From: a virus
Taxonomy: Duplodnaviria > Caudoviricetes
IMG/VR virus record: IMGVR_UViG_3300025016_000004
Strand: one strand, 5' to 3'
Length of the DNA stretch: 64,000 nucleotides
The notes under the pieces are model-generated. The model worked only from the letters and a program-made list of their open reading frames with translations, had not been told where the DNA came from and searched no databases. Below are positions 16,526-35,439 of this stretch, in pieces. Numbering within the stretch: the stretch's first letter is position 1; each line of letters starts with the position of its first letter. The position numbers were made by a program, and so were the translations under genes.

Positions 16526-16666
16526 TTTAAAAAAAAGTATAAAAAAACTTGTTTTTTATTTAAACAATTACTATATTTGCACATATATATTAACAAGAGA
16601 TAGGATAATACATCTGGACAAACCCAAATGGGAAAGGATTGAATCTGAACAGTCTCTTAAATAAAA

Positions 16667-16750
16667 ATGAAAATGAAAACTTTAGTAACTTTATTATCTT
16701 TATGTCTGTTGGTCGTGTGTACTGACACATCGAGTTATGTAATTACTTAA
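16667..16750 (+). promoter_or_regulatory. Leader peptide A (MKMKTLVTLLSLCLLVVCTDTSSYVIT) of tRNA-operon attenuator
   Basis: Leu/Val/Cys-rich uORF between promoter (16572) and terminator; CATCGAG in the uORF is complementary to the terminator 5' arm. Confidence 0.85.
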
Positions 16751-16782
16751 AGGATTTATTTATATATTTTTTAAATTGTTAT

Positions 16783-16814
16783 AAAAGCTCGATGTTAACG
16801 CATCGAGCTTTTTT
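16783..16814 (+). terminator. Attenuator terminator A
   Basis: AAAAGCTCGATG-TTAACG-CATCGAGCTTTTTT, 2 nt before tRNA-Cys. Confidence 0.9.
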
Positions 16815-16816
16815 AT

Positions 16817-16901
16817 GCACTAGTGCTCCGAGTGGTCGAAGGGGGTGGTCTGCAAAACCGCCAGAGAAATCTCAACGTTGGTTCGAATCCAACCTAGTGC
16901 T
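16817..16901 (+). tRNA. tRNA-Cys(GCA), extended variable arm
   Basis: GCACTAG/CTAGTGC acceptor, loop CTGCAAA, U73. Confidence 0.9.
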
Positions 16902-16913
16902 CAAAATAAAAAT

Positions 16914-16999
16914 GCGGCCATAGTTCAGTAGGTCAAGAGCACCACCCTTACAAGGTGGGGGCGAATAGTATAACGGGGGTTCGAATCCCTCTGGCCGCA
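16914..16999 (+). tRNA. tRNA-Val(TAC), extended variable region
   Basis: GCGGCCA/TGGCCGC, loop CTTACAA, TTCGAAT. Confidence 0.88.
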
Positions 17000-17051
17000 C
17001 AACAATTGTGAGGCCATCTGTTATGTTGCAACATAAAATGATGGTCTGAAT

Positions 17052-17198
17052 ATCTAAATGAGCGTATGGTGAAATTGGTAGCCACGGGGACCTAACCGTC
17101 TTAATGACTAGCCGCAGACTTGCCATCTGGGTTGAAGGGTGAACCCTCTGTTATAGGCATATACGTATAGGTTCGAATCCTATTGCAGTTATTTAGAT
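17052..17198 (+). ncRNA. tRNA-like RNA with expanded central domain
   Basis: Leu-type D arm and T arm (ATAGG-TTCGAAT-CCTAT) flank ~85 nt of hairpins; closing ATCTAAAT/ATTTAGAT. Confidence 0.5.
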
Positions 17199-17204
17199 GA
17201 TAAT

Positions 17205-17290
17205 GGGGATGTGGTGGAATTGGTAGACACGCTGGTTTTAAGCATCAGTGCCTCGAAAGGGGCGTGTGGGTTCGACTCCCACCATCCCCA
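17205..17290 (+). tRNA. tRNA-Leu(TAA)
   Basis: GGGGATG/CATCCCC, loop TTTAAGC, long variable arm. Confidence 0.93.
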
Positions 17291-17295
17291 CAATT

Positions 17296-17369
17296 GGCCC
17301 CATAGCTCAGTGGTTTAGAGCGTCTCTTTTACACGGAGAAGGTCTTAGGTTCGATTCCTAATGGGGCTA
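17296..17369 (+). tRNA. tRNA-Val(TAC)
   Basis: GGCCCCA/TGGGGCT, loop TTTACAC. Confidence 0.92.
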
Positions 17370-17533
17370 CATGAAAAATTGGAATAAAATAATAGCACCA
17401 AAAGTTGAAATGTCTATGAATGAATTGGTTAAAACAAAGTCATCAAATATAGAAGGTTATTTTGAAATAATAGAAAAATTAACATGTAGTAAAATAATAA
17501 AAAACGATAATAATATATCAATTTTTATGTAAG

Positions 17534-17610
17534 CACCCCCATGGTGCACGTTGGAATGCACAACAGGTTTAAGCCCTGTCGTTTCGTGGGTTCGATTCCC
17601 ACTGGGGTAC
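17534..17610 (+). tRNA. Atypical tRNA-Leu(TAA) with short variable loop and imperfect acceptor
   Basis: ACAGG-TTTAAGC-CCTGT; GTGGG-TTCGATT-CCCAC. Confidence 0.6.
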
Positions 17611-17622
17611 AAAATTAAAATT

Positions 17623-17823
17623 ATGGAAATTAGAATAACAAAAACTCCGTATTCAATATTTAAAGATGTTCCAAAAATTAACTATTTTTGGGTATATAGA
17701 AAATATAAATATGTGAAAGGGTTTCGTTTTAGGTTTTTTGGTTATAATTTTAACGTAACTGAAAATTTTGCAACATATAAATTAATCAATAAGTTTAAAA
17801 ACAATGAAAACGCATACAATTGA
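17623..17823 (+). CDS. Hypothetical protein
   Basis: ATG downstream of the tRNA; upstream part of the listed ORF overlaps the tRNA. Confidence 0.55.
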   Translation: MEIRITKTPYSIFKDVPKINYFWVYRKYKYVKGFRFRFFGYNFNVTENFATYKLINKFKNNENAYN

Positions 17824-32863: not shown

Positions 32864-32932
32864 CATGAAAATTTTTTGGATTTTGGTTCAAAATCTTTAC
32901 TTATGTATAAATTAAAAGAATATATTAAAAAA

Positions 32933-33015
32933 CGGGAAATGACCAAGGTAGAATGAAAAAAGGCTACGGGGCCTTGGAAGCTTCAGTATGGTCGGTTCGA
33001 TTCCGACTTTCCCGA
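32933..33015 (+). tRNA. tRNA-Pro(TGG), atypical D arm
   Basis: CGGGAAA/TTTCCCG, loop CTTGGAA. Confidence 0.75.
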
Positions 33016-33191
33016 CGACCAGACTGTTACTAATTCATAGAAGGAGAAACGTATCCTAGCATAAAATTAGATTTATTGGGGCATCGTCTAGATTCCAGAA
33101 GGATTTAGATTAGGTCGTAAAATGAAATAAGAGAATAGTGAACCTAAGAAATACGTGGTAGCATGGTTAACAATGTCTTGTCTCTTATAAT

Positions 33192-33264
33192 GACCTCGAA
33201 GCTCAAGTGGACGGGCATCTCCCTTTTAAGGAGAGGGTTACGGGTTCGAAGCCCGTGGGGGTCA
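33192..33264 (+). tRNA. tRNA-Lys(TTT)
   Basis: TCTCC-CTTTTAA-GGAGA. Confidence 0.9.
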
Positions 33265-33353
33265 CAAAGTTCAGTTGATAGTCTGAACTGAACCAAAATT
33301 ATCATTTGCCTATATCGCATACCAACATATAAAGCACTTAACACTGGATGATA

Positions 33354-33431
33354 TGCACCATAGACTGAATAGGAGAAGGTACTGGATTTGTAACCCAGAA
33401 GGCTGGTCGGTTCGATTCCGACATGGTGCCC
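33354..33431 (+). tRNA. tRNA-Thr(TGT)
   Basis: GCACCA/TGGTGC, loop TTTGTAA. Confidence 0.72.
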
Positions 33432-33577
33432 CACAAAAAGAGGATATTATTTGGTGAGTAGACTATCGAGCCAGTTATAGCGAGTATAGTTAAAGTGACA
33501 AGTAAGATGACAGGGCATATTGGGTATGTTTATAACAAACCTGAACTTAGCGGTTTTGGTGTCGTCCTCTTTAAAAT

Positions 33578-33658
33578 TGGGAAGTAGGTAAGCGGTCAAA
33601 ACGGCCTGACTGTAAATCAGGTGCTTAGGCTTCGGGGGTTCGAATCCCTCCTTCCCAA
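33578..33658 (+). tRNA. tRNA-Tyr(GTA)
   Basis: TGGGAAG/CTTCCCA, loop CTGTAAA, variable arm. Confidence 0.92.
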
Positions 33659-33807
33659 CTATACATGTAGAAAGCAATTATTGATGTCTAGCTTCAGCTT
33701 CGTGGAGAGGTCAGGCTACAATCTGGTGATAAGATTAATTACCTTAAGTCAGATACATTATGAATTGTGACATATCGCATATTACGATATGGAATATTAG
33801 TAAATAT

Positions 33808-33881
33808 TGCCCCATGGTGTAATTGGTTAACACGTCTGGTTTTGAGCCAGAAGAGTCTAGGTTCGAGCCCTAGTGGAGTAA
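33808..33881 (+). tRNA. tRNA-Gln(TTG)
   Basis: TCTGG-TTTTGAG-CCAGA. Confidence 0.9.
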
Positions 33882-33994
33882 CTTTGGAACTTTTGTACTT
33901 TTTGATATATTATATATAAAAGATTAGGTCGCAAAATGAAATAAAGATAAAGAGGGAGATGTTTTAACCTAACATCTTTAAAAAATAGGTTAAT

Positions 33995-34081
33995 GGCCCC
34001 GTAGCTCAGTTGGTTTGGAGAAATCCTTAGAGCTTTCCGCTTTTAACGGAAATGTCACAGGTTCGAATCCTGTCGGGGTCA
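33995..34081 (+). tRNA. tRNA-Lys(TTT) with extra hairpin in D loop
   Basis: GGCCCCG/CGGGGTC; GGA-GAAA-TCC insert; loop CTTTTAA. Confidence 0.85.
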
Positions 34082-34190
34082 CAAAAATTACCAGATGTTA
34101 CCGTTAAGGTGGTATAAAAAGTGTAATTAATTGGTTTACAATGGATTGATTTTATAGAAAATCACAAAACGTTACCGTTAATTACCGAAT

Positions 34191-34263
34191 GCACCCATAG
34201 TTTAAGTGGTTAGAATTTTGGATTGGTATTTCAAGGGTCTCGTATCGTGTACGAGTGGGTGCT
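34191..34263 (+). tRNA. tRNA-Thr(GGT)-like, non-canonical T loop
   Basis: GCACCCA/TGGGTGC, loop TTGGTAT. Confidence 0.55.
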
Positions 34264-34386
34264 CCGAGCCATTTGGATTGTGAAACTTGTGGTACAAGAT
34301 ATTGTGACCAAAGTTGTTAAATTATAAGGTATGATTTGGTTATTACATTAATATTTCGTATCTTTGTAGTAAATTAAAAATAAGAT

Positions 34387-35262
34387 ATGAGAGAATTAGT
34401 GGTAACACCATCGATAACAGATAGAAGTTCACCTTCATTACAAATGTACTTCAATGACATTCAATCAATTAAGATTTTAACACCTGAAGAAGAGTATGAA
34501 ATTGCGGTAAAAGCGTTTGATGGTGATGAAAAATCTAAAGAATTATTAGTAAAACATAACCTAAGATTTGTAATAAGTGTTGCAAAACAATATCAAATAT
34601 ATGGGATTAAATTTGAAGATTTAATCAATGAGGGTAATATAGGGTTGCTTAAAGCGTCAGAAAAGTTTGACCCATCAAGAGGTTTTAAATTTATATCATA
34701 TGCTGTATGGTGGATTAGACAAACAATAATAGCACACATACAAGCAAACAGTAAAATTGTTAGACCACCACTTGGTAAATATATTAAATCATTTAAAATG
34801 AAAAAAGAATATACCTTGTTGGAGCAAAAGTTAGAAAGAACTCCAGCTTACAATGAATTGGTAGACCATTTAGGTAATGAGTTTAGTGATTCTGAAATAG
34901 AGTTTTTTATTGATAATTTAAGTAATAAGGTACAATCATTAGACGCACCTTTAGGAGAAGATGATGATTCTATAACGTTATTAGATTTGTTAAAAGATTC
35001 AAATGATTTCGATTCAAATGACTTAGTTAAGTTAGGTGATTCTGACATTAGAACTGAAGTATTACTTAGTAGGTTAAATGATGAAGAGAAAACCATATTA
35101 ATATTATTATATGGCTTAGATGGTAGAGAACCAGTAAGTATCAAAGAAGTATCAAATATGTTAGAACTTAGCAAAGCAAGAATTGCTTTGATTAGAGATA
35201 AGTCTTTACGTAAATTAAAATTCCAATTGCTTCATAAGGGTAATTGGTTGAAAGAAATATGA
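34387..35262 (+). CDS. Sigma70 factor, Bacteroidota RpoD-like (paralog 1)
   Basis: NLRFVISVAKQY, DLINEGNIGL, RGFKFISYAVWWIRQ. Confidence 0.93.
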   Translation: MRELVVTPSITDRSSPSLQMYFNDIQSIKILTPEEEYEIAVKAFDGDEKSKELLVKHNLRFVISVAKQYQIYGIKFEDLINEGNIGLLKASEKFDPSRGFKFISYAVWWIRQTIIAHIQANSKIVRPPLGKYIKSFKMKKEYTLLEQKLERTPAYNELVDHLGNEFSDSEIEFFIDNLSNKVQSLDAPLGEDDDSITLLDLLKDSNDFDSNDLVKLGDSDIRTEVLLSRLNDEEKTILILLYGLDGREPVSIKEVSNMLELSKARIALIRDKSLRKLKFQLLHKGNWLKEI

Positions 35263-35365
35263 GGTAAAACAACCCCAGCAACTGTATAAGTAATATATTG
35301 TTGAGAGCTGACTCAACACTCCTTAGTGAACTGCTAGGTGTGAAAGGTAGTTGAGACACCGACTT

Positions 35366-35439
35366 GCGGGATTGGTGTCCAATGGCTAACATGTGACCCT
35401 TCCAAGGTTGAGCTGTCGGTTCGAATCCGACATTCCGCA
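35366..35439 (+). tRNA. tRNA-Gly(TCC)
   Basis: GCGGGAT/ATTCCGC, loop CTTCCAA. Confidence 0.9.

Follow-up and report, generated by a model that had tools for sequence, protein, structure and literature searches.

Predicted ribosome-mediated attenuators, with leader codons matched to the tRNAs downstream, precede the tRNA operons of a Bacteroidota phage

Introduction

For decades there has been debate over why phages carry transfer RNA (tRNA) genes, and the control of these genes is largely unexplored. Both matters are raised by a 64,000-nucleotide (nt) stretch of DNA from a virus of the Caudoviricetes (Duplodnaviria; IMG/VR record IMGVR_UViG_3300025016_000004), called the window below, in which three tRNA clusters (A, B and C, from positions 16817, 19879 and 32777) each stand behind the same cassette. 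This cassette consists of a promoter, a short upstream open reading frame (uORF), an antiterminator segment within it and an intrinsic terminator, all of which were found where a preliminary description of the sequence had placed them (Table 1). Are these cassettes attenuators, in which the ribosome on the uORF would decide whether the tRNAs are transcribed, and what would they sense?

Classical ribosome-mediated attenuation, newly applied to phage tRNA operons, is the best-supported reading of the sequence, and we put the probability that the cassettes are functional attenuators of this kind at about 80%. The parts, their geometry, the correspondence between leader codons and tRNAs, and the recurrence of the whole design in relatives and in unrelated flavophages are directly visible in the genomes analysed.

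Results

Leader codons and the tRNAs of the clusters

The tRNA genes were called with ARAGORN and Rfam, which gave the three + strand clusters of Table 1, and the amino-acid sets {Cys, Val, Leu} for cluster A, {Asp, Phe, Glu, Ala} for cluster B and {Pro, Lys, Thr, Tyr, Gln, Gly} for cluster C were used to score the leaders. Cognate codons were counted in the best 12-codon window of each leader and compared with random peptides drawn from the phage's own amino-acid usage, with no hand-picked block. The results of this scoring showed that leaders A, B and C hold 10, 11 and 12 cognate codons, respectively, for their own cluster (P ≤ 5e-5 for each leader) and 1-4 for a non-matching cluster, the leader-by-cluster matrix being strongly diagonal. 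The one-to-one match between leader blocks and operons that had been described from the sequence was thereby borne out, and in leader C the control block is a run of 14 consecutive Tyr, Thr, Lys, Gln, Pro and Gly codons. Reading of the codons against the anticodons showed that each amino acid having a tRNA in a cluster occurs in the matching window leader, and that 33 of the 36 cognate control codons can be read by a cluster anticodon through standard wobble, the exceptions being one C-ending four-box codon per leader (GTC, GCC and GGC).

Such a match could be suspected of being accidental, given that AT-rich DNA yields short open reading frames (ORFs) and hairpins, that blocks can be picked by eye, and that the window holds 304 small ATG ORFs in all six frames along with many promoter-like sites. 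Among these 304 ORFs, however, each leader was alone in reaching its own score, the P values were obtained without choosing a block, and the design recurs in 12 cassettes. Chance is refuted by the leader scores together with the duplex placement and permutation results given below, and we attach next to no credence to it.

The preliminary description had also taken the GC-ending codons of the leaders as a sampling of every host isoacceptor. A modest excess of such codons was found (15 of 40, with 8 expected; P = 0.007), which came mainly from leader C and was significant for leader C only, and the number of distinct leader codons did not differ significantly from expectation (P = 0.07); a sampling of every isoacceptor is not supported in the form first proposed. 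Several of the GC-ending codons fall within predicted stems, and stem formation explains them equally well.

Promoters of the cassettes

A 34-nt promoter consensus has exactly three matches in the window (at 16549, 19630 and 32478), one ahead of each tRNA cluster, when none is expected by chance. All three cassette promoters fit the form TTG...TAnnTTTG, which is typical of Bacteroidota and which occurs 28 times on the + strand of the window and 5 times on the - strand. The promoters of cassettes B and C, described earlier as nearly identical, differ by about 2 bases over roughly 78 when compared by eye. The distance from the -7 box to the uORF is 33-85 nt, and the uORFs, of 27, 31 and 32 amino acids, have the lengths first reported for them (27-32). 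No further consensus promoter was found inside clusters A and B, nor between their terminators and tRNAs.

Comparison by eye of the -7 box and the first transcribed bases showed that GCACTATATATTAA is common to window cassettes B and C and to all four cassettes of the relative G001 (described below), and that cassette A has GCACATATATATTAA at this place (window 16572-16600 for A, 19653-19680 for B and 32501-32528 for C). The other window promoters that were checked have a different sequence there. These common bases may mark a dedicated promoter class or a regulator site. A search of IMG/VR with the exact 35-nt promoter gave no match, while a search with a 15-nt promoter core gave at least 114 loci, mostly irrelevant, the only useful one being locus L012, which belongs to Cellulophaga phage phi38:1.

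Table 1. Positions of the cassette elements and tRNA clusters in the window, with the leaders found in phages phi38:1 and Panino
Feature	Coordinates	Strand	Description
Cassette A promoter	16549..16582	+	-33 TTG, -7 TATATTTG
Leader uORF A, 27 amino acids	16667..16750	+	Control block codons 5-18 (16679-16720), rich in Leu, Val and Cys codons
Segment 2 of A, antiterminator arm in uORF	16727..16736	+	Pairs with 16786-16795; 0/300 shuffles as good
Terminator A, 9-bp stem and U6	16786..16815 (hairpin 16786-16809)	+	Free energy about -13 kcal/mol
tRNA cluster A	16817..18090	+	Cys(GCA), Val(UAC), Leu(UAA), Val(UAC), Leu(UAA), Leu(UAG); ARAGORN, Rfam
Cassette B promoter	19630..19663	+	Consensus match
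Leader uORF B, 31 amino acids	19709..19804	+	Control block codons 8-19 (19730-19765): Phe, Glu, Ala, Asp codons
Segment 2 of B	19776..19786	+	Pairs with terminator 5' arm 19836-19847; 0/300 shuffles as good
Terminator B, 12-bp stem and U-run	19836..19869 (hairpin 19836-19864)	+	Free energy about -15 kcal/mol
tRNA cluster B	19879..22632	+	Asp, Asp, Phe, Glu, Phe, Glu, tRNA-like stretch, Ala(UGC); ARAGORN, Rfam
Cassette C promoter	32478..32511	+	Consensus match
Leader uORF C, 32 amino acids	32552..32650	+	Control block codons 4-17 (32561-32602)
Segment 2 of C	32611..32620	+	Pairs with terminator 5' arm 32684-32693; 15/300 shuffles as good
Terminator C, 12-14-bp stem, 10-nt loop, U6	32680..32718	+	Free energy about -13 kcal/mol
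tRNA cluster C	32777..35440	+	Pro, Lys, Thr(UGU), Tyr, Gln, tRNA-like stretch, Thr(GGU), sigma ORF, Gly(UCC); ARAGORN, Rfam
Sigma-70-family ORF in cluster C	34387-35262	+	Regions 1.2, 2, 3, 4; own promoter 34336-34366
phi38:1 leader KTIMNIATDIRTKGVK			Then probable Ala tRNA, Lys, Ile, Gly, Met, Asp, Thr, Val, Arg, Ile
phi38:1 leader NMTYNNFSWYSNCSFSSYN			Then Tyr, Ser, Ser, Asn, Trp, Phe, Cys
phi38:1 leader LLHQEPLEQLRLP			Then Pro, Glu, Gln, His, Leu, Arg; tRNA-like stretch between His and Leu
Panino leader QRLHQELEQP			Then Pro, Glu, Gln, His, Leu, Leu, Arg
Panino leader AATGIAIIGRTKDK			Then Ala, Lys, Ile, Gly, Asp, Thr, Val, Met

Predicted folding of the leaders

The terminator hairpins are followed by U-tracts of U6-U9. 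They had been said to lie immediately before the first tRNA, which is so for cassettes A (1 nt) and B (9 nt) and not for cassette C, where the interval is about 60 nt. A rule-based terminator scan lists terminator B only; as we read it, the rules of the scan miss terminator A, whose stem is extended into the U-run, and terminator C, which has a 10-nt loop.

Minimum free energy folds of all three full-length leaders gave the terminator plus a predicted 1:2 helix, formed between the last control codons and a segment (segment 2) a few codons downstream. In cassette A, for example, segment 2 is predicted to pair with control codons 16-18 in a 1:2 hairpin (16713-16733), and the 1:2 helix of cassette C spans about 32563-32630. 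The same segment, which is directly 3' of the control codons, is the predicted partner of the 5' arm of the terminator. This 2:3 pairing was tested by folding the transcript only up to the terminator loop and masking the footprint of the ribosome codon by codon. Truncated folds were needed because the strong local terminator persists in equilibrium folds, which cannot discriminate a kinetic switch.

The results of these in silico tests showed that, when the transcript ends before the 3' arm, the terminator 5' arm pairs with segment 2 of the uORF in A, B and C. The pairing holds with the A-site on every codon through the last control codon (codon 18 in A, 19 in B and 16 in C) and is lost beyond it. 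In these models, the position at which the ribosome changes the outcome is what an attenuation model requires, and the predicted geometry, with segment 2 free on the control codons and covered past the block, fits the trp/his-type layout that had been proposed. A duplex search of the 5' arm was made over the whole upstream leader, with dinucleotide shuffles as the null (Table 1), and across four genomes the best upstream partner of the arm was located in uORF codons 16-27 in all 12 cassettes.

Conservation in relatives and a fourth cassette

Homologous cassettes were found in three relatives, the IMG/VR contigs L118 and L119, whose A1-like protein is 78-83% identical to that of the window phage, and G001, an IMG/VR contig that is a complete genome of 360,451 bp with terminal repeats and 53 tRNA hits. 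Alignment of these relatives with the window placed most of the conservation in the control block, in segment 2 and in the two arms of the terminator, with large indels in the 5' untranslated region and in the spacer that follows the stop codon. Past segment 2, the peptide tails are variable in both length and sequence. Compensatory changes were observed in the terminator stems (A-U to C-G in B, and C-G to U-A in C), and substitutions at codons 17-18 of leader A remain within Val, Leu and Cys.

G001 carries the same three cassettes plus a fourth, of the kind that the preliminary description had proposed to look for outside the window. The leader block of this fourth cassette, ISIHINSIMNWRRNSS, is made of Ile, Ser, His, Asn, Trp and Arg codons, and the tRNAs behind it are His, His, Trp, Ser, Ser, four Asn, Ser, Arg and Ile; its promoter and its terminator/antiterminator layout are of the same kind as those of the other cassettes. 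Together, the four leaders of this phage lineage cover all 20 amino acids. G001 also has ungated tRNAs, a Met tRNA and a Phe tRNA pair, each with a promoter directly upstream and no intervening terminator.

Independent instances in other flavophages

The phi38:1 locus (100% identity to KC821614) contains three cassettes of the same design in which the amino acids are split differently from those of the window, and Maribacter phage Panino contains two cassettes (Table 1). The three leader terminators of phi38:1 would end transcripts at about 2975-2980, 4475-4480 and 5692-5700 of L012. Leader composition co-varies with the downstream tRNAs in both phages despite this different split; the attenuator reading thus passed a check whose failure the preliminary description had named as a refutation. 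The true pairing of leaders and clusters was the single best permutation in each genome (1/6 in the window, 1/24 in G001, 1/6 in phi38:1 and 1/2 in Panino), and the leader block includes every amino acid with a cluster tRNA in 10 of the 12 cassettes of the four genomes. In cassettes 2 and 3 of phi38:1 and in cassette 1 of Panino, the ATG is only a few bases past the -7 box, and these leaders may therefore be leaderless mRNAs. RNA-seq contigs from phi38:1-infected cultures span leader 1, the terminator and the following tRNAs in two runs, which indicates their presence in RNA only; in one run, a contig breaks near the leader promoter.

The same arrangement could also arise if the uORFs were independent small-peptide or small-RNA genes with terminators of their own, the tRNAs being transcribed from separate unrecognised promoters and the likeness to attenuators being incidental. 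Leader A does resemble a hydrophobic signal peptide or a lipoprotein peptide, leader ORFs of phi38:1, extended to upstream starts, are entered in GenBank as the hypothetical proteins gp066 and gp070 (L131 454-561 and 3095-3277), cassette C has its 60-nt spacer before the first tRNA, and cassette B of G001 has an additional promoter ahead of its tRNAs. Independent genes leave unexplained, however, that in four genomes with different partitions each peptide matches in its amino acids the tRNAs that follow it, and that the best complement of the 5' arm always lies just past the control block. The variable peptide tails, and the lack of a consensus promoter between terminator and tRNAs in A and B, also speak against this explanation, which we regard as improbable.

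tRNA genes and other elements of the window

The tRNA-Ala(UGC) that had been listed for cluster B was confirmed at 22558-22632 by Rfam (37.7 bits, with a cut-off of 29); for ARAGORN to report it, the threshold had to be lowered. The tRNAs of this cluster are interspersed with small ORFs and with a gene for an HNH endonuclease (20838-21362, HTH + HNH), and a NUMOD4-HNH gene is located away from the cluster, at 47770-49377. These two HNH genes are probably homing elements that break up tRNA arrays. A first TnpB / IS605 OrfB-type gene (22806-23924, - strand) directly follows the tRNA-Ala of cluster B and a second one is at 52597-53793 (- strand), with HTH, OrfB and Cas12f-like TNB domains. The sigma-70-family gene of cluster C would also be reached through read-through of attenuator C; no close locus was found when the sigma-factor protein was used as a query.

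Some of the tRNAs exceed the usual length (Cys, 86 nt; Val, 87 nt; Asp, 91 nt; Pro, 88 nt; 16817-17000, 20464-20554 and 32777-32864), and the extra bases of the long Cys and Val tRNAs are, by eye, in the variable region. The long Val and Asp tRNAs each adjoin a copy of normal length with the same anticodon. Weak tRNA-like remnants were seen at 17060-17191 in cluster A, at 21690-21755 in cluster B, and at 32933-33016 and 34003-34082 in cluster C. Two more Bacteroidota-type promoters, at 30728-58 and 30855-85, stand ahead of about 1.3 kb of ORF-free DNA with 40% G+C; at the end of this stretch (30728-32200), which is partly conserved in G001, is a tRNA-like element of atypical form (31885-31974; Rfam, 34.6 bits). 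A 986-nt non-coding stretch upstream of cassette C folded no better than its shuffles (z = -1.06).

Rfam detected tRNAs only, and no leader, T-box (RF00230) or GOLLD family was found at the gathering score in the window or at E ≤ 1 in three sub-regions (16800-18200, 19870-22700 and 30680-35500), of which the last alone covers a leader, that of C. In a blastn comparison of clusters A and B with GenBank phages, tRNA genes were the sole matches.

The + strand carries nearly all genes of the window, whose G+C content is about 30-31%. Phage-type proteins include an A1-like DNA transfer protein, an ATP-dependent ligase, a PARP-like protein (10180-11469, PARP catalytic domain with E = 5e-24) and a C5 methylase, and these are accompanied by HNH endonucleases, the sigma-70-family protein and the two TnpB/OrfB genes. 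The A1-like protein is about 50% identical to its homologues in the Tenacibaculum jumbo phages pT24 and PTm1, and pT24 is, as judged by this protein, the nearest cultured relative; PTm1 gave no tRNA hits. DNA of the window is contained in groundwater and aquifer metagenomes of 2017, and a small share of it is present in one metatranscriptome.

Discussion

A proposed mechanism and what it would sense

The order of the parts suggests how a cassette would work. Host RNA polymerase would use the Bacteroidota-type promoter, and a ribosome would translate the leader of 27-32 codons. When the matching charged tRNAs are scarce, this ribosome would be slowed on the control codons and segment 2 would stay free to pair with the emerging 5' arm of the terminator, so that no terminator would form and transcription would enter the tRNA genes. 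When decoding is fast, the ribosome would cover or pass segment 2, the 1:2 helix would re-form behind it, the terminator hairpin would fold and the transcript would end. We infer for this scheme that the leaders are translated, that ribosome and polymerase are coupled, and that a physiological trigger exists, which may be late-infection demand, decay of the host pool or a tRNA-cleaving defence.

Each cassette would regulate, through negative feedback, the supply of tRNAs for one subset of amino acids, because the products of the operon are the tRNAs that are sensed. We further think it fairly probable, with less assurance than for the attenuators themselves, that the attenuators jointly covering the 20 amino acids make up a genome-wide controller of tRNA supply, in which each one switches on only the matching block of tRNAs. 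If this is true, the phage could recognise any gap in the tRNA pool of its host and fill it selectively, gaps made by anticodon-nuclease defences among them, and the system would be the first ribosome-mediated attenuation of tRNA genes and the first case of a virus measuring the decoding capacity of its host codon by codon.

As the preliminary description had supposed, the attenuators might work chiefly to sense an attack on host tRNAs, replacements being made only after the host pool has been cut by anticodon nucleases (PrrC, PARIS AriB or retron effectors) or by the phage's own host shut-off. Phage tRNAs are reported to rescue infection from tRNA-cleaving defences (PMC10264068, PMC11555353); cluster C includes Lys and Tyr, which are known nuclease targets, and separately gated blocks of tRNAs would permit a selective response. 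The sequence gives no pointer to defence over ordinary supply and demand, however, and the coverage of all 20 amino acids extends beyond the known nuclease targets. We hold such a main role to be possible and rather unlikely.

Points that weigh against attenuation

Several observations count against attenuation of the tRNA operons by ribosomes. Leader A has Thr, Ser and Lys codons, and leader B has Asn, Ile and Leu codons, for which the cluster behind them holds no tRNA, and some tRNAs are distant from the control region, the tRNA-Ala being 2.7 kb back, behind ORFs, and the tRNA-Gly standing behind a sigma gene with its own promoter. The duplex of cassette C beats its shuffles only moderately (15/300). 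Equilibrium folds of the full leaders keep the terminator at every ribosome position, and the model therefore depends on the order of folding. In B and C, the stop codon is 16-28 nt past segment 2 and a ribosome at the stop leaves this segment uncovered; termination must then rely on the 1:2 helix forming again or on a second ribosome behind the first. That the leaders are translated, and that transcription and translation are coupled in Bacteroidota, are assumptions. Phage pT24 carries four tRNAs after a plain promoter, without a leader, and the device is therefore not universal.

Comparison with known systems

Multivalent attenuators are found in enterobacteria as trpL, hisL, pheL, leuL, thrL (Thr and Ile) and ilvL (Leu, Val and Ile). 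The phage cassettes share with them the order of the parts, namely a promoter, a short leader ORF with clustered codons, the predicted 2:3 and 3:4 helices with a putative 1:2 helix, and a terminator, and, as proposed here, the logic by which a stalled ribosome leads to read-through. They differ in being viral, in belonging to a Bacteroidota host and in regulating tRNAs rather than biosynthetic enzymes; they have no sequence similarity to the enterobacterial leaders and no match to an Rfam leader family. The phage leaders would sense 3-7 amino acids each (up to nine in phi38:1), and those of one genome jointly cover all 20. To our knowledge, all classical leader-peptide attenuators regulate genes for amino-acid biosynthesis or for aminoacyl-tRNA synthetases; the genes behind the window cassettes, which are tRNAs, a few small ORFs, an HNH gene and a sigma gene, are outside this classical range.

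The attenuator of phenylalanyl-tRNA synthetase in Escherichia coli (pheST, with the pheM leader) has leader codons for the same amino acid and, like the phage cassettes, controls a translation component for the amino acid encoded in its leader. It differs from them in being cellular and in controlling a synthetase for a single amino acid, whereas the phage product is the tRNA itself and the loop would sense tRNA supply directly. T-boxes work without a ribosome, uncharged tRNA being bound directly by means of a specifier codon and the T-box sequence. They resemble the cassettes in being terminator/antiterminator switches that read tRNA status for translation-related genes, but the phage control codons are in an ORF that looks translated and no T-box was matched.

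The closest experimental precedent for the principle of a uORF attenuator is found in Actinobacteria. Stalling on the uORF of whiB7/wblC is described as leading to antitermination (PMC10274678), the composition of the uORF setting which shortages of amino acids or tRNAs are sensed, and knock-down of tRNA genes is reported to activate the uORF attenuator in mycobacteria; it is this response of whiB7 to tRNA depletion that supplies the precedent. That system has one Ala-rich uORF and regulates a transcription factor with a role in stress and drug resistance, whereas the phages have matched sets of leaders before tRNA genes. The phage tRNA arrays treated in PMC10264068 and PMC11555353 belong to the same class of cargo and point to a likely benefit of the tRNAs during infection. 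Attenuators, leaders, terminators and promoters go unmentioned in the main text of PMC10264068. In full-text searches of the literature we met with no account of tRNA genes, phage or cellular, under the control of a leader peptide; the preliminary description likewise knew of no ribosome-mediated attenuation of phage tRNA arrays.

Significance

The control region itself indicates the purpose of the tRNAs, which would be made when ribosomes slow on the codons that these tRNAs read. Whether phage tRNAs serve codon compensation, replace decaying host tRNAs or counter a defence becomes directly testable in the cultured pair of phi38:1 and Cellulophaga baltica. For annotation, the rule that follows is to recognise as leaders the 'hypothetical proteins' ahead of phage tRNA arrays, and the cassettes could serve as compact, programmable sensors that gauge decoding capacity one amino acid at a time. 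Leader-peptide attenuation would be extended by these phages to non-coding RNA genes, to viruses and to the Bacteroidota.

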